From the NCBI GenBank assembly GCA_963727625.1, contig CAVSHR010000004.1:256001-320000 (forward strand): a stretch of DNA of 64,000 nucleotides, in the 5' to 3' direction. Under the pieces are notes generated by a model. It saw only the letters and a list, made by a program, of their open reading frames with translations. It ran no database searches and had not been told where the DNA came from. Shown piece after piece: positions 6,393 to 30,579 of this stretch. Position numbers and translations under genes: made by a program. This DNA is from an uncultured delta proteobacterium. Its GTDB lineage: Bacteria; Desulfobacterota; Binatia; UBA9968. Every line of letters begins with the position of its first letter. Within the stretch, counting starts at the first letter, position 1.

Positions 6393-6411
6393 GTTTGCGG
6401 GTTTATATATA

Positions 6412-6439
6412 ACGTCTGATAAGATATAGAAAATTTGAT
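6412..6439 (+). other. Hybrid dif-like attL: intact XerC arm and spacer, degenerate XerD arm
   Basis: ACGTCTGATAA-GATATA-GAAAATTTGAT. Confidence 0.75.
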
Positions 6440-6459
6440 TTTCAGAGTAGGGTAGTATC

Positions 6460-6489
6460 ACGTCCGATCGTCCTCCAATTATGTAACCC
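6460..6489 (+). other. Second Xer-like site with 8-bp spacer (cer-like geometry)
   Basis: ACGTCCGATCG-TCCTCCAA-TTATGTAACCC; 8/11 and 9/11 matches to the two arms of the dif at 8306. Confidence 0.55.
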
Positions 6490-6492
6490 TTA

Positions 6493-7140
6493 CTAATTTT
6501 TCTTATCTCTTTTTTCTACTGCATTTTTCGCCCCAGCCGGGAGTGTTTCATATAAGTTCCCCACTCGCATTGGCATGGATATCATGTACTCGACAATGAG
6601 ATTTACTAAAGGGAAAAGCTTGTCTGCCACCCCTACGTCATCCGCATCGATCTGACCCGGATGTACGGCATTGTTTCCTATAACGCGAACACTATCCAAC
6701 GCTTTTTGCATGGTTGCAGGTAAACCTTTTGACACCAACATTCCAATATCATCATTGAGATTGGTACCCGCACCCCCGAGATGAATGCACAGTTTCTGTA
6801 TTGCTAGACGAAGCAATGCAGCTGCCCCTCTCGGTGAGATCAGCGCGATTTGTGCCGCTTCTTCGTAATCAGCTTTCACCGCCGGTGGCATGTCTGCGGG
6901 TGGCAAAGGAGCCGCGCCCCGATTCGGATACACTATCGAATGCGCGTGCCATATAGATAATTCCCCGCAGTGTTCGCACTGCCCCAAGGATACGTCGGCT
7001 TCAAAATAATTCGGATGGCCTTCTGGAACTGCAGGACAATTGCGAGAGTTCCTGTACCCCCATTTGTAAGACCGGGCATACACGCCACAATGCGGGCAGG
7101 TGAATGCTTTGGTATCACGATCCGGCGCCACGTAGCTCAT
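6493..7140 (-). CDS. Zn-ribbon + DUF4145 (HEPN-like) domain protein
   Basis: CPHC and CEHC; DYEEA...SPRGAAALLRLAIQKLC...RVIGNNAVHPG. Confidence 0.85.
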   Translation of the reverse strand: MSYVAPDRDTKAFTCPHCGVYARSYKWGYRNSRNCPAVPEGHPNYFEADVSLGQCEHCGELSIWHAHSIVYPNRGAAPLPPADMPPAVKADYEEAAQIALISPRGAAALLRLAIQKLCIHLGGAGTNLNDDIGMLVSKGLPATMQKALDSVRVIGNNAVHPGQIDADDVGVADKLFPLVNLIVEYMISMPMRVGNLYETLPAGAKNAVEKRDKKN

Positions 7141-7221
7141 GAATCAAGATCCCCATTCGTGCCGAACTTTCTCAATAATTTTTAAGTCCCTAATTTTAGT
7201 ACTCCAACTATCGGTATCCGC

Positions 7222-7410
7222 GCAAGGCCGTGCCCGAGGAAATATTGAGCGACGATCAAACAGCAGCGCGTGCACTTGCCTTGCAGTGCTCCGCCACATG
7301 AACCTTTTTCCGGACCCGGGAAAACCCTCGGGCACGTAAGAGGGTTTTCCATCGAGTGCTTACCACTCCGAGGCATCGCGCGCCTGGATGCTCCGGGCGC
7401 ACGGTGCCTC
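7222..7410 (-). ncRNA. Candidate structured RNA or ssDNA element (tandem hairpins, two loop-target pairings)
   Basis: Hairpins at 7272-7289, 7319-7350, 7354-7368 and 7370-7410; two loops are complementary to 7222-7228 and 7229-7235. Strand assumed from flanking genes. Confidence 0.4.
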
Positions 7411-7684
7411 AATGAACTCTCACCGATGAATCTGAGAGATTCAGCTTTGAAACTTTTCCGCCACCCTCAATAACAGCATCAGCGATCTCATTGATTACAG
7501 ACGGACCGCCAAGAACGAGAGTAGAGTCACAGAACACGCAATGAATCTCTAAATCGTCCGAACCGAGATCAAACCGTTGAACCCTCAACTTATGGTCGGC
7601 TTCAAGATGACGCCTGATAGCCCGGCGGATCTGTTTTCCCGCTAATCTCATGCTAGCCCTCTGTAACCCTTTGATTTTATTCAC
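7409..7684 (-). CDS. Hypothetical protein (91 aa, basic N-terminus, HCxxC)
   Basis: ORF co-oriented with neighbours inside the dif element; no family recognised. Confidence 0.55.
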   Translation of the reverse strand: MNKIKGLQRASMRLAGKQIRRAIRRHLEADHKLRVQRFDLGSDDLEIHCVFCDSTLVLGGPSVINEIADAVIEGGGKVSKLNLSDSSVRVH

Positions 7685-7733
7685 TCGGTTCTAAAACGTT
7701 TAGCAATCAAGATTAAAGAGAGAATTCCACCGT

Positions 7734-8021
7734 TCACTCTGGCAGTCCTCCCTGTTCGCGATCTGCAGCGCCCTTAAGCTGAGAGATCAGCCGCTTTAGA
7801 CGATCAATGCTCTGGAATTCATTATCGCGCAGAACGTCTTCGAAGAATCGCGCCGCATAGATCAGCACGCCATCCTTAAACTTGATCACACTCTCCAGAC
7901 GTTTGATTTCTGCGTGCAGGCGGGCGAGCTCGCTGCAGAGCGCTCGGTGATTATCTTCAACAGTCCGGTGTTGAACTGTTGCCTTATATTCAGGTGGAAG
8001 AAGCTGGATACGACGGCTCAC
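7734..8021 (-). CDS. Hypothetical coiled-coil protein (95 aa)
   Basis: GTG start with AAGGGG upstream; heptad-like LCSELARLHAEIKRLESVI. Confidence 0.6.
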   Translation of the reverse strand: MSRRIQLLPPEYKATVQHRTVEDNHRALCSELARLHAEIKRLESVIKFKDGVLIYAARFFEDVLRDNEFQSIDRLKRLISQLKGAADREQGGLPE

Positions 8022-8305
8022 GGCAAATTTACCCCTTGGATAAATTCACCGTCACCATTTGCACGGCGTTCAGGTCCTAGTAGACTCTGCGGACCTGTTT
8101 TCTCCGGACGCACCGGTGGAAACTTAACACAACTAGAACGGCGAGGTATTTGCCTTAAGCCCCTCAACAGGCGCGATGTACTTTTCGAACTAGCCGGCCA
8201 TTGTGAGTCTAGCCGCCCCTTAGATAACACAGGGGGGAGACCCTTACAAGAGGCCCTAAACAGGGCGCTTTGATAAAAAGGGCGCTTACCAGTCCGCCAT
8301 AGCTA

Positions 8306-8333
8306 ACGTCTGATAAGATATATTATGTAAACT
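8306..8333 (+). other. dif: Chromosomal dif site (XerC/XerD dimer resolution)
   Basis: ACGTCTGATAA-GATATA-TTATGTAAACT: 11-6-11 layout with a XerD arm close to the conserved TTATGTTAAAT; intergenic; core-gene strand flips here. Confidence 0.9.
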
Positions 8334-8487
8334 TTAATAGATAGCTTCAGTTTGATTCGCTTAAAGATGCCGAACTCTTTCCTGTTTCGCCTTCCCCGCC
8401 ATCTCGTTTGAATATTGACTCGCTCCATCCATGCACGACTCGAAAGCTCATTTCGCCCTCGCGCCCGACCATTAAAGCTACGCTGGA

Positions 8488-9645
8488 TTAGAAATAACGC
8501 CAGAGCCACCATTTCTCGAAACCGAGCTTAGCCCAGTAGATCAGTTTCGACGGGCCCCAGGTGCGCGGCTCGGTGGCGCCGAACGGTGGCCAGCCGGTAG
8601 GATAAATGGTTCGATTAGCAGCGGCGCGTCCAGCACCGTATGCCAGCAGTCATATGGTGTGGAGCCACAAGTCTACCGGTCTTCCTTTGCCGGTAATCTC
8701 AGCGGCCAGGTTGTGCGCAAGCACGTCGGCTTCCTGATGAGCTACGCCGCCGGATTTGGACGCCGGCATGTCGGCACAATCGCCGATCGCGTAGACGTTG
8801 TCCCATTTCGTCCGGAGCGTGTCGTAATCGACACGAATGCCGCTTTCACACTCCGCCAGCCCGCAATCGAATAGCACTTTAGCTGGGCGATGCGGCGGTA
8901 CCATGACCAGCAAATCATACGGAATCCTGTAGTCGTATAGCCCCTTGACTTCCTTGGCTTGGGGATCGATCGACCGGACGACAAATTCGTAATGCTGCGT
9001 GATGTTTCGGCGCCGGCTTTCCTCATCCATCCAGACAATCGGATTACGGTGTTCACCGGTGGGTTCCGGGTCGCGGGTGAAATATTCGATTTGCACTCGG
9101 TCGCGGATACCGCGTTTCTTGAAGTAACTGTCCAACATCCACTGCGCTTCGTATGGCGCCGGCGGACAGCGATATGGCCCGAGCGGGATCCCGACGACGA
9201 CTCGTCCGCCGTTGAATGTTTCAAGCGTACTGCGCAAGCGCATGGCACCGTCGAGCTCCCAGGGATGGATCGACGCTTCGGCAAAACCGGGAACCAGATC
9301 GGGCCTTACCTGCATGCCGAGGGAAACGATGAGATAGTCGTAATCAAGTTTCTGATCCCGCAGTTCAACTTCTTGACGTTTTGGATCGATACCCAAAACT
9401 TCGGATTGGATAAACTTGACGTTGCGCTTTTCCAATAGGCTCAAACTGCGCGTGATGTCGCGTGGTTGGCGCTCACCGACCATGACGAACAAAAATGCCG
9501 GCATGAACAGATGATCGGCCCGCTTGTCGACAAGGATGACGTCATGGTTCTCGCCGAGCTTCCGGCCAAGATTCGTCGCCGCTACCACGCCGCCGCTGCC
9601 GCCGCCCAAAATGACTATTTTTTTTCTCCCGTTGACGGCCGTCAT
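8488..9645 (-). CDS. sqr: Sulfide:quinone oxidoreductase/FCSD-like flavoprotein, probable selenoprotein (Sec at codon 332; 385 aa)
   Basis: GGGSGG FAD motif, YRCPPAPYE, YAIGDC; the UGA at 8652-8650 is followed in frame by LLAYGAGRAA...PSKLIYWAKLGFEKWWLWRYF-TAA. Confidence 0.85.
8616..8645 (-). promoter_or_regulatory. Putative bacterial SECIS element
   Basis: mRNA UGA-CUGC-UGGCA-UA-CGGUGC-[UGGAC]-GCGCCG-C-UGCUA; two-part stem, apical loop 17 nt after UGA with G at loop position 2. Confidence 0.75.
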
Positions 9646-9828
9646 CTACTTCTTGCCACCATGCCGTTGCTGCCAGCGCAGCGTCAAACCTTTGAGATTC
9701 CTCATCCGTTGCTCACGCCACAGCTCCTGTTCGCGCCGGCCTTCGCGTGTGAGTTCCTGGCCGAATCGCGATGTGGCATAAAGAAACCAGAGAATGAGTT
9801 TATCGGATAAATCTCTGAGCCGTTCCAT
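9646..9828 (-). CDS. Small hypothetical protein (60 aa)
   Basis: Its TAG directly abuts the ATG of the SQR-like gene (TAGATG). Confidence 0.5.
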   Translation of the reverse strand: MERLRDLSDKLILWFLYATSRFGQELTREGRREQELWREQRMRNLKGLTLRWQQRHGGKK

Positions 9829-9938: not shown

Positions 9939-10906
9939 CTACCGAAGGAAGGTATCTTCCTGCCGGAGTTTCTCCCCCGCGGCCAACAACCCCTGCGGCG
10001 TCGGCCCCGCTTCGCCGATGAGTCCAACCTGGCGCAGAAACTGTCCTATCTGCTCATGGTCGCGTGGACTTACCGGCGCGTAGGGACGGCAAGGATTGCC
10101 GAGATCGACGCCGAAGTGTTTCATCGCGGACTTCATCACCGGCGGCAATCCGTACGCTGCCCATTTTCCTGGAAACAACGCGTAGCAGCGCGCCCAAAAG
10201 CGCGCGGTCTCGAGATCTCCGGCGCGAAATGCCTTGACGATTTGTGCGCCGATTCGCGTTCCCGGCGGCGGCATGGTCGCGCCGGAGCCGCCCAACATAA
10301 GCGTGACCAGCAGCGGTTGCATCGTTGTGAAATAATGCCCCCGCCCGGCGATGTCGATTTGCTCGATCAACCTGGAGATTTTAGTTATATCCCGCGAACT
10401 TTCCTTAAAGTACCGGATGTTGCCGATCTCACTGATTTTGACAAAGGCATCTTGGGGCGGGTCGGCGCCGGGTCCAGGGTTATGATAACAAGTGACCGGC
10501 AGCGGGCTTGCCGAAGCCACTTGAGTATAGAACTCCATCAATTCGGCGATGGTCGGCTGCCCCCCCAAGGGCGTAGCGGCATCAGCACTTGCACCAGATC
10601 GCCGCCCACTTTCGCGGAATAATCCGCGAGCTCGATCACCTCGCGCGGCGACGGGCTGGAGCAACCGAGAATGACCGGCACACGCTTGTTCACCATTTCC
10701 GTCGCAACTTTCAGCACCTCTTTGCGCTCGTCGCGTGTAAGCATGGTGTATTCGGCCGCTTCGACGGCGGCGATAGTGACGGCGTCGCAGTCCGCAACGA
10801 GAAATTCGATCTCTTTTTCCAGCGCCTTGTAATTCACCCGGTCATTGTCATCGAACGGGGTCAGGCAGGCGCCGATGATTCCTTTAATCGGTTTTTCCAG
10901 TGCCAT
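9939..10906 (-). pseudogene. Dihydrodipicolinate synthase-family aldolase, frameshifted at a G7 run (or sequencing error)
   Basis: N-half KGIIGACLTPFD...VPVILG (10538-10906) and C-half CYHNPG...YFKESS (9939-~10560) join if one G is added at 10560-10566, giving PLRPWGGQPT. Confidence 0.85.
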
Positions 10907-13366: not shown

Positions 13367-14536
13367 ATGGCCAAGAGCTTTCAGGAGATTATGGCCGAAG
13401 CGCGCAAGGAAATTCCCGAAGTGAGCGTGCAACAAGTCAACGAATTACTTAAGAATAACGGCAAATCGCCGGTTTTGCTTGACGTTCGCGAGAGCGATGA
13501 GTGGCGCCAGGGGCATCTGGAAGGAGCCCTGCCGTTGCCACGCGGCTTTCTTGAGATCAAAGTCGAGAGCGCGGTCCCCAACAAGGATGCTCCGATAATC
13601 GCCTATTGCGCCGGCGGCGTGCGCTCGTTGTTGGCCGCGAAGGTGATGAAGGAAATGGGTTATCGGAACGTTTCTTCGATGGCGGGCGGTTACGCAGCGT
13701 GGAAAAATGGCGGATTCAAATGGGTGCAGGATTTTCAGTATACGCCGGAGCAATTGATCCGCTACAGCCGCCATTTTCTCCTGCCCGAGGTTGGCGAAGA
13801 CGGCCAGGCGAAATTACTTCAAGCCAAGGTGCTGATGGTTGGAGCGGGCGGTTTGGGCTCCCCCTCCGCCTATTATCTGGCGGCGGCCGGGGTCGGAACG
13901 ATCGGCATCATCGACAACGACGTCGTAGATATTTCTAACCTACAGCGCCAAATCCTTCACGCCAACGACCGGGTCGGCATGCCAAAAGTCGAATCGGCCA
14001 AGAAGACTCTCGAGGCGCTCAACCCAGACGTTAAAGTGATTCCTTACCAAGCCAAATTAACCTCCGAAAATATCATGGAGATCATCAAAGATTACGACTT
14101 GGTCGTCGACGGTTGCGATAACTTTCCAACGCGCTACCTGGTAAACGATGCCTGTGTACTGACGGGAACGCCTAACGTGCACGGCAGCATCTTCCAGTTT
14201 GAGGGCCAAGCCACGGTATTTTATCCCGGCAAGGGCCCCTGCTACCGCTGTTTATATCCGGAACCGCCGCCCGCCGAGATGGCGCCCAGTTGCGCCGAAG
14301 CCGGTGTGCTCGGCGTGCTGCCGGGCTTGATCGGCGTGATCGAGGCCCTCGAAGCGGTAAAACTCATTCTCGGCAAAGGCGATAGCTTGGTCGGCCGCTT
14401 GTTACACTTCAACACTCTGACCATGGAGATCAACACGCTCAAGCTGCGGCGCGATCCCAATTGCCCAATGTGCGGCGATCATCCGACGATCCACCAGTTG
14501 ATCGATTACGAAGAATTTTGCAGCTTGCGGCACTAG
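13367..14536 (+). CDS. moeB: Rhodanese-MoeB fusion (sulfur-carrier adenylyltransferase/sulfurtransferase)
   Basis: LDVRE...YCAGGVRS rhodanese; RYSRH, GAGGLG, SNLQRQ, two CxxC. Confidence 0.92.
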   Translation: MAKSFQEIMAEARKEIPEVSVQQVNELLKNNGKSPVLLDVRESDEWRQGHLEGALPLPRGFLEIKVESAVPNKDAPIIAYCAGGVRSLLAAKVMKEMGYRNVSSMAGGYAAWKNGGFKWVQDFQYTPEQLIRYSRHFLLPEVGEDGQAKLLQAKVLMVGAGGLGSPSAYYLAAAGVGTIGIIDNDVVDISNLQRQILHANDRVGMPKVESAKKTLEALNPDVKVIPYQAKLTSENIMEIIKDYDLVVDGCDNFPTRYLVNDACVLTGTPNVHGSIFQFEGQATVFYPGKGPCYRCLYPEPPPAEMAPSCAEAGVLGVLPGLIGVIEALEAVKLILGKGDSLVGRLLHFNTLTMEINTLKLRRDPNCPMCGDHPTIHQLIDYEEFCSLRH

Positions 14537-29865: not shown

Positions 29866-30579
29866 ATGGGCGGTGAGGAGATTTTTTTCGAGCAAATTCG
29901 TTCCGCCGGCTGTTTGTCATACATTCTGGGGTGCGCCCAGGACAAAGTCTGTGTCGTCATCGATCCCGAGCTGGACAAAGCCGACGATTACGCCGGCTTA
30001 GCCGAATTCTTTAAAGCGAAGCTTCTCTACGCCCTTGACACTCACACCCACGCCGACCACAATTCCGCTTGCAAGGTCATGCGCGAGCGCTATGGCGTAA
30101 AAGTCATCATGCACCGCGCCACCGACGCCCCTTACGTCGACTTGCCGGTCGAAGACGGCGATCAAATCAAGTTCGGCCAGCAATCGCTCAAGGTCGTCTA
30201 CACGCCGGGCCACACCCAGGATTCCATGTGCCTGCTGTTCGGGGATAGAATTTTTACCGGCGATACGCTGCTGATCGGCGGTTGCGGCCGCACCGATCTC
30301 CCCGGTGGAAGCGCGGAGTCGCAATATCAAAGCCTGCTAAAACTCAAGGCGCTCGGCGACAAGATTCGCGTCTATCCCGGCCACGACTACCGCGAAGCGG
30401 TCTCGACCCTTGGCGACGAAAAACAAAATAACGCGCGCATGCTGATCCCGACCAAAGACGAATTCATTCACTTCATGACTTCGCGCAAACCTCCCCTGCC
30501 GCGCAAGATCCAAGAAGCACTCGAGTGGAACCGCACGCCTATACAAGGCACACAGCGCGGAATGGGCGAAGGGATTTGA
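29866..30579 (+). CDS. MBL-fold persulfide dioxygenase-like (ETHE1/glyoxalase II family)
   Basis: CLSYILG, DTHTHADH, TPGHT, TGDTLLIGGCGRTD, YPGHDY. Confidence 0.85.
   Translation: MGGEEIFFEQIRSAGCLSYILGCAQDKVCVVIDPELDKADDYAGLAEFFKAKLLYALDTHTHADHNSACKVMRERYGVKVIMHRATDAPYVDLPVEDGDQIKFGQQSLKVVYTPGHTQDSMCLLFGDRIFTGDTLLIGGCGRTDLPGGSAESQYQSLLKLKALGDKIRVYPGHDYREAVSTLGDEKQNNARMLIPTKDEFIHFMTSRKPPLPRKIQEALEWNRTPIQGTQRGMGEGI

Follow-up and report, generated by a model that had tools for sequence, protein, structure and literature searches.

A selenocysteine (Sec)-containing form of sulfide:quinone oxidoreductase (SQR) has entered the literature only recently. In the 2025 deep-Sep paper, where the enzyme type was first predicted, it appears as an NAD(P)/flavin adenine dinucleotide (FAD)-dependent oxidoreductase that occurs in two Desulfosediminicola species and has homologues both with TGA and with Cys (PMC12013277). 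A Sec subtype of type III SQR is already curated as NCBIfam family NF049943 and is listed in a 2026 review (PMC13188914). Our literature search found no biochemical work on a Sec-SQR and, for the clade described below, only that review and, through it, deep-Sep, whose homologue list may already include the clade. Here we consider a gene on a 64,000-nucleotide (nt) stretch of DNA, hereafter the window, from an uncultured delta proteobacterium of the class Binatia (assembly GCA_963727625.1, contig CAVSHR010000004.1, positions 256,001 to 320,000). An initial annotation of the window, made from its letters alone, had noted no characterised Sec-SQR, while allowing that bioinformatic selenoproteome lists might include related FAD oxidoreductases; this holds in that none has been characterised biochemically, but its estimate of novelty was too high, since the Sec type III SQR already has a curated model. 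We posit, with a probability of about 0.85, that the gene is real but misannotated and encodes a UGA-decoded, monotopic Sec flavoprotein of 385 residues with the fold shared by SQR and flavocytochrome c sulfide dehydrogenase (FCSD), in which Sec332 occupies the position of the second redox cysteine.

The open reading frame (ORF) called here starts at an ATG at 9645, runs on the reverse strand to 8650 and yields 331 residues with the C terminus LWLHTI, closed by a TGA at 8652-8650. Past this TGA, the frame remains open for 53 sense codons (LLAYGAGRAAANRT...FEKWWLWRYF) until a TAA at 8490-8488, giving 385 residues in total, and all of these coordinates agree with those first proposed. An FAD-binding GGGSGG (Rossmann) motif occupies residues 14-19 of the translation, and the Pfam matches are Pyr_redox_2 and FCSD_central, the central domain of FCSD. 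The window copy has cysteines at positions 160, 261, 266 and 290, in addition to U332, and none within the extension. The proposal that the extension lacks Cys is therefore correct for this copy and fails for a subset of its relatives: 23 of 77 orthologues (e.g., loci L043, L073-L084 and L037) have a Cys four residues past Sec, in the motif U-L-L-S/A-C, where the window copy has Tyr. In some lineages, this residue could be a resolving Cys.

The strongest argument that the UGA is meant to be read comes from its conservation. We examined 41 related genomes, including the window's own. The gene is present in 35 of them (the six without a match are 60-97% complete), and all 36 matches that cover residue 332 have exactly one TGA. 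These matches come from five genera in three families, all within a single order, and 32 of them are full or nearly full length, with 67-100% identity through residue 385. At the LHTI-U-LL column, a TGA was found in 20/20 loci and, once twelve further loci had been added, in 32/32, of which 31 align without gaps over 378 codons. A scan of species-representative genomes, which overlaps with the 41-genome set and so is not an independent sample, yielded 121 loci. Among the best 80 of these 121, all 79 that reach the column have the TGA, 77 by pattern and two (L163 and L164) by inspection; in L163 the frame is shifted by 1 nt further upstream, and L162 stops short of the column. A relative is also encoded at 250 metagenome loci, and 79 of the best 80 have the TGA, the search pattern having left the remaining locus (L226) undecided. 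These counts include one unpublished genome (G005, locus L026), on which alone no claim depends. Because the TGA recurs in independent assemblies and in short metagenome contigs, the codon is not an assembly error, a doubt that the initial annotation had itself raised. Contigs from three DNA sequencing runs cross 8650-8652 with no difference listed, although at 151-213 nt and a depth of about 2 they lend weak support; six DNA runs, and no RNA run among those listed, had matches to the window, each DNA run covering less than one-fifth of the sampled words. As to the surroundings of the UGA, the codon before it (8653-8655, reverse strand) is a rare ATA in 31/31 aligned orthologues and 74/77 genome loci, and in 90% or more the base after it (8649, reverse strand) is C. 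In E. coli, termination is weak when C follows the UGA.

A second line of evidence concerns what follows the UGA. The tail is 53 codons long at 76/77 genome loci and 78/79 metagenome loci. In 30 comparisons against the window copy, the ratio of nonsynonymous to synonymous differences (pN/pS) is 0.163 for the tail, or 0.179 with the codons of the putative Sec insertion sequence (SECIS) left out, and 0.225 for the body. To judge from these comparisons, the tail is translated and is under purifying selection as strong as that on the body. Public annotation has followed the called stop: as was expected of standard pipelines, 119 of the 120 best database matches are truncated, exactly one residue before the Sec column. 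The other way of reading through the column is seen in protein P0019 (385 residues, 71% identical, within the clade), which continues with Cys at this position. Essentially all other copies among the relatives keep both the UGA and the hairpin described below, so that the two patterns anticipated for a selenoprotein family, a shared UGA with its hairpin and an exchange of UGA for Cys, both occur.

The UGA also falls where a Sec would be expected to do something useful. Based on sequence, the closest solved structure is human SQOR (E value, 6e-34). In the alignment, U332 lies opposite its ytsCplvtG Cys, and C160 lies opposite its pvkCagap Cys. We take these two residues to be Cys379 and Cys201 of the human enzyme, its catalytic pair, a numbering that combines residue counts with an offset of 40 residues. 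Both columns are invariant or nearly so in a hand-picked alignment of 79 sequences (A2), and 146 of 166 aligned homologues have C at the Sec column. The CPxAP motif that had been noted in the sequence is present as RCPPAP, with Cys160, and the placement of U332 in the catalytic Cys column is upheld by both the homologues and the human SQOR alignment. An AlphaFold2 (AF2) model built on the 79-sequence alignment has a predicted local distance difference test (pLDDT) score of 94.6 and a predicted template modelling (TM) score (pTM) of 0.93, with strands at residues 328-337, 340-348 and 358-366 and a helix at 367-384. Since the residues after the UGA form three strands and the terminal helix, they would be integral to the fold. 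The predicted helix is rich in W, F, Y and L, with interspersed K, E and R, and its terminal FEKWWLWRYF resembles the C-terminal ends of Cys-containing sister proteins. The top Foldseek matches of the model are the human, Aquifex and Acidithiobacillus SQRs, with TM scores of 0.83-0.86. Among NCBIfam models, the best is NF049943 (SQR_III_seleno; E value, 2e-78), and the HxxU motif of that family is present in the identical alignment column, as H-T-I-U here and as H-A-T/V-U in members; the match to TIGR03385 is only 41.9 bits, over residues 9-113.

The host is able to decode Sec. Its genome carries selA, selB and selD in a row (contig C5, 715112-719466), and selD itself has one in-frame TGA, as in a Sec-containing SelD. 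A tRNA-SeC with anticodon TCA lies about 50 kb from this cluster (C5, 768830-768920), completing the set of genes for which the initial annotation had recommended a search. Among the 41 relatives, 38 have a selA above the cut-off, and the three exceptions are 60%, 65% and 93% complete.

Sec insertion would further require a SECIS element, and a candidate hairpin follows the UGA. RNAfold recovers the structure that had been proposed from the letters (8645-8616), with the loop UGGAC at 8632-8628 and 17 nt between UGA and loop. Its lower stem is not conserved, being absent from the consensus structure of relatives, and the core that is conserved encodes the peptide G-A-G-R-A. In the consensus fold of 32 orthologues, all 192 sequence-by-pair cells are paired (32 sequences with 6 pairs each; in alignment A1, columns 21-26 with 32-37), and the departures in the stem are five C-to-U changes, all of which keep G-U pairs. 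As given in section 5 of the 2026 review, the bacterial SECIS model has a loop of 3-9 nt, an upper stem of 4-16 bp, an obligatory G within the first two loop positions that is usually followed by G or U, 16-37 nt from UGA to loop, and a minimum free energy of -7.5 kcal/mol or lower (PMC13188914). The present hairpin lies within every one of these bounds, with a 5-nt loop, a 6-bp upper stem, G at loop position 2 and then G, a spacing of 17 nt, and a minimum free energy of -8.7 kcal/mol for the upper stem alone. It would also match the minimal E. coli SECIS, a 17-nt stem-loop 11 nt from the UGA.

The codons that make up this hairpin are unusually static. Synonymous variation, measured as entropy, is at its lowest in the whole gene at codons 323-335 (in the 378-codon numbering, in which the UGA is 325), and the stem codons rank 1 of 225 windows for low synonymous variation (229 eligible codons, 31 sequences). 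Fixed or nearly fixed codons are the ATA before the UGA (31/31), CGC (31/31), GGC (30/31), GGA (29/31) and GCC (29/31). In contrast, all four synonyms are used at the Ala codon that supplies the first loop base from its third position and at the two Ala codons right after the stem. Read comparatively, this pattern places the hairpin under RNA-level constraint. The protein appears to register the same constraint: all Sec forms have the GAGR peptide (78/79 metagenome loci), and the Cys form P0019 has E-P-G-K there, which is what release from the RNA constraint would look like. If so, this single Cys reversion shows what the RNA had imposed on the protein. Conservation, selection on the tail, the hairpin and the machinery thus all support the proposal that the UGA is decoded as Sec, with a strength close to the most that comparative genomics can give.

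In total, these observations are consistent with a model in which the 17-nt stem-loop, 11 nt downstream of the UGA and inside the coding sequence, would recruit SelB with Sec-tRNA(Sec). Sec332 would stand in for the second redox-active Cys (the presumed Cys379 of human SQOR) and pair with Cys160 (the presumed Cys201) beside the FAD. Sulfide would attack the Se-S (or Se-S-S) bridge between Sec332 and Cys160, the FAD would relay electrons to a membrane quinone, and the sulfane sulfur would then be released from the selenium side onto an acceptor. This three-step sulfide oxidation is most likely the chemistry of the enzyme. Sulfide and quinone would be its substrates, and Sec may have a kinetic role; both as a nucleophile and as a leaving group, a selenolate would be superior to a thiolate. 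The called 331-residue fragment would be without the catalytic residue, the putative membrane helix and three C-terminal-domain strands.

Several observations weigh against this reading. Selenium incorporation at the UGA is something that we infer from comparative sequence data. The window hairpin taken alone is no stabler than chance (z = 0.57; of 200 shuffled sequences, 143 were equally or more stable), so that its significance derives solely from its conservation in relatives, and a search of 8400-8800 at E values up to 10 gave no Rfam SECIS family, only a chance snoRNA match. There are no compensatory double changes in the stem among the 32 orthologues. A shuffle test of covariation is uninformative because the stem hardly varies, and the case for RNA structure therefore rests on suppressed synonymous change and conservation rather than on covariation. 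The Cys of P0019 is known from the protein alone, the best metagenome locus being 76% identical to it. At the level of family, the protein scores 264.1 bits with NF049943 (259 bits on the genome) against a curated cut-off of 525; the clade is a relative of that family and, by the cut-off, not a member. FCSD flavoproteins fit the predicted fold as well as SQRs do (Foldseek TM, 0.86). The gene order conserved in three families (haem-oxygenase-like, cyclase, dihydrodipicolinate synthase [DHDPS] family, a 60-residue ORF and then the Sec gene) has upstream neighbours with no evident link to sulfur. Finally, no persulfide-dioxygenase-like gene occurs in the 1-1.5-kb flanks of the loci of the genus, and the nearest candidate in the window's own genome is 20 kb off (window positions 29866-30579, forward strand) and below model cut-offs.

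Could the protein, then, be a real selenoprotein of the SQR fold with some other reaction? It might be a persulfide, polysulfide or sulfane-sulfur reductase, it might act on selenide or another selenium substrate, or it might use a soluble acceptor as FCSD does. We consider this unlikely, although it has more in its favour than the other alternatives. The near-equal fit of FCSD and, at a TM score of 0.77, of NDH-2 would allow it, as would upstream neighbours unrelated to sulfur oxidation and, in the genus itself, the lack of an adjacent dioxygenase gene. The C-terminal domain is short, with one helix compared to the two of most SQRs in a published account (PMC9666304), and solved SQRs bind selenide, judging by the title of PDB entry 3sz0. 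On the other hand, both redox residues sit at SQR positions, the nearest curated family is an SQR, and the terminal helix is like the ends of the Cys sisters. An FCSD would be recognised by an export signal and an adjacent cytochrome c; there is no room here for a signal peptide because the Rossmann motif begins at residue 14, and no cytochrome family was found among the scanned neighbours in the window or in relatives. The genomic neighbourhood also offers a positive argument. In two sister families of the same taxonomic order (67-72% identity), a 345-residue fusion of a GloB/persulfide-dioxygenase-like metallo-beta-lactamase (MBL) and a rhodanese adjoins the Sec gene at 32 of 112 loci. The fusion gene lies immediately downstream; in one family it shares the strand of the Sec gene, and in the other the two genes converge (loci L073-L084; e.g., L078:5206-6243). 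Its product falls short of the GloB and Blh model cut-offs. In heterotrophic sulfide oxidation, SQR is usually partnered by a persulfide dioxygenase-rhodanese. This neighbour is the best contextual support for SQR function and fits sulfide detoxification by SQR, persulfide dioxygenase and rhodanese.

Could the UGA instead be read as an ordinary amino acid, such as Cys, Trp or Gly, by a near-cognate tRNA or under a reassigned code? Conservation of the tail directly proves read-through only, and to that extent it would serve this explanation too. We nevertheless regard it as very improbable. TGA is the true stop of 25 of the 77 orthologues and so is an ordinary stop in these organisms, which speaks against reassignment; the full Sec system is found in the genome and in 38 of the 41 relatives; and the column is that of a catalytic Cys, where Sec would be expected. 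Moreover, the hairpin fits the SECIS model and appears constrained as RNA, and the sole Cys lineage has lost the peptide that the hairpin encodes. A further alternative is that the gene is decaying, its UGA having arisen by nonsense mutation or misassembly, or that the UGA is the genuine stop of a functional 331-residue protein with an untranslated tail. This agrees with public annotation, in which all but one of the 120 best matches end before the column, and is already refuted, as far as comparative data can refute it. All orthologues that we examined, from five genera in three families, have the TGA; selection on the 53 codons of the tail is as strong as that on the body; and in the AF2 model the tail contributes to the beta sheet and supplies the sole putative membrane helix. 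The truncated product would be left without a second redox residue.

The features of the locus are collected in Table 1.

Table 1. Features of the putative Sec-SQR locus (window coordinates).
Feature	Positions	Strand	Remarks
Sec-SQR-like gene, full coding sequence	8488..9645	-	385 codons + TAA; flavoprotein of predicted SQR/FCSD fold; basis: translation, Pfam, AF2, Foldseek
In-frame UGA, proposed U332, motif H-T-I-U	8650..8652	-	TGA conserved among orthologues; column is C in homologues
Cys160 codon (RCPPAP), proposed redox partner of U332	9166..9168	-	Aligned to Cys of human SQOR PVKCAGAP; nearly invariant in alignment A2
53 post-Sec codons	8491..8649	-	Predicted: three beta strands (C-terminal domain), then a single terminal helix at residues 367-384 (nt 8547-8494)
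Conserved putative SECIS core	8622..8638	-	6-bp stem CGGYGC/GCGCCG, 5-nt loop N-G-G-N-C; 17-nt stem-loop, starts 11 nt after UGA
Extended hairpin of the window copy	8616..8645	-	Extra 5-pair lower stem; RNAfold
60-residue ORF	9646..9828	-	TAG stop abuts ATG of Sec gene; conserved, clade-specific

The 60-residue ORF is a separate lead. A profile of it matches at nearly all loci of the clade (110/112 in genomes, 78/80 in metagenomes), and the four loci without it have cut upstream flanks; it was found at 0 of 29 loci of distant homologues, NF049943 loci included. The protein has no Pfam match, and all 37 named database matches are called "hypothetical protein," bar one that is evidently misnamed. 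AF2 predicts helices at residues 2-20 and 28-57 (pLDDT, 82). Any role of this protein in the activity of its neighbour is something that we infer from their association.

A few other genes near the locus deserve mention. The roughly 2.2 kb downstream of the Sec gene (about 6400-8480) encode a DUF4145 protein (7140..6493) and contain small ORFs that lack annotation (7684..7409 and 8021..7734), in the place where the sister families have the MBL-rhodanese fusion. The gene at 29866-30579 encodes a GloB/persulfide-dioxygenase-like MBL protein of 237 residues that lies next to recQ and is the genome's best match to the fusion, at 38% identity over the MBL part. A MoeB-type adenylyltransferase (ThiF) with an N-terminal rhodanese is encoded at 13367-14536 on the forward strand (NF006444, 571 bits); it was considered as an orthologue of the MBL-rhodanese fusion and rejected, having clustered with it through the common rhodanese domain alone. 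Upstream, the DHDPS-family gene (9939-10906, reverse strand) is split into the overlapping frames 10906..10538 and 10664..9939, and tblastn with the intact 321-residue orthologue from L078 likewise returns two pieces, in frames -2 and -1. The split is either an assembly frameshift or a pseudogene.

The records of the clade are uncultured metagenome-assembled genomes. Most bear the label Candidatus Binatia, Deltaproteobacteria/Thermodesulfobacteriota or Syntrophobacter(aceae), and a few are assigned to other phyla. The 121 genome loci and 250 metagenome loci point to a widespread group of uncultured bacteria. Because the public annotation is truncated and no NCBIfam model reaches its cut-off, an enzyme that is probably central to the sulfide handling of these organisms goes unrecognised as a selenoprotein.

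How, then, does the enzyme compare to the systems already described? Type I SQRs use a third Cys. Those of Aquifex aeolicus and Acidithiobacillus ferrooxidans (PDB 3hyv and 3t2z) share the fold (TM, 0.83-0.86), in an alignment that reaches the C terminus (query residues 8-383), and differ in a far weaker sequence match (E values, 1e-17 to 1e-20) and in having two C-terminal amphipathic helices (PMC9666304), where a single terminal helix is predicted here. Type VI SQR (e.g., SqrF of Thiocapsa) is like the present protein in its short C-terminal domain and single terminal helix (PMC9666304), and this likeness is architectural only. Other Sec flavoproteins of the pyridine-nucleotide-disulfide type listed in the 2026 review, such as the CoA-disulfide reductase type (TIGR03385, motif UGxP), belong to the same FAD superfamily and likewise have Sec for a redox Cys; they are of another subfamily, with Sec at another place (PMC13188914).

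Among solved structures, human SQOR, a type II enzyme (PDB 6oi5 and 8dhk), is the closest in sequence and one of the closest in fold (TM, 0.83), and its catalytic cysteines, which presumably carry a trisulfide, coincide with C160 and U332. It differs in being eukaryotic, in having Cys rather than Sec, in an identity of only about 25% in the structural alignment, and in a longer C-terminal domain. A Sec in place of Cys on an SQR scaffold bears on what selenium contributes to sulfane-sulfur transfer.

The nearest described system is the NF049943 family, with which the clade shares the fold, the phylum, the position of Sec (H-x-x-U on the column of the second redox Cys), the occurrence of Cys forms alongside Sec forms, and the status of a Sec enzyme known by prediction only. 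Among 401 sampled genomes from this phylum, we found true members of that family, nine with U at the catalytic column (four of which scored 652-665 bits) and Cys forms at 643-654 bits; the Sec motif of members is D-G-H-A-T/V-U, in the same column as U332. In contrast, the clade and its Cys sisters score 248-272 bits (members, 643-665), the clade is 31-36% identical to members, 53 residues follow the Sec rather than about 92, and the 60-residue upstream gene is absent from member loci. The putative SECIS elements differ as well: that of members is CGAGAAGG-GGUC-CCUUCUCG, and that of the clade is CGGCGC-NGGNC-GCGCCG. Within the same phylum, the NF049943 Sec genes at L050-L067 have a GGUC loop on an 8-bp stem, about 17 nt past the UGA, with L050 showing a third hairpin variant.

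In a tree of 160 sequences and 374 columns (FastTree, LG+gamma; six fragmentary or frameshifted rows dropped), which was midpoint-rooted and is in substance unrooted, the present clade (22 tips; support, 1.0) and the NF049943-like sequences (27 tips; support, 0.995) are separate, and their common ancestor spans 84 of the 160 tips, mostly Cys forms. The lower identity, the different SECIS, the shorter C terminus and the separate branching argue that Sec is probably of independent origin in the clade, and thus that Cys was probably replaced by Sec at one site independently in both lineages. More tentatively, we speculate that this second Sec lineage, with its own origin of Sec and its own SECIS dictating an invariant G-A-G-R, may form a two-gene selenoenzyme module with the clade-specific 60-residue, two-helix protein, a possible subunit, assembly factor or membrane-docking factor, and that such a module may be common in uncultured soil and sediment bacteria. 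Next to the type predicted in 2025, the clade would be a second, separate and widespread lineage, probably convergent and missed by the existing model: two lineages of SQR with Sec at one and the same residue and unrelated SECIS elements, a natural case of convergence.

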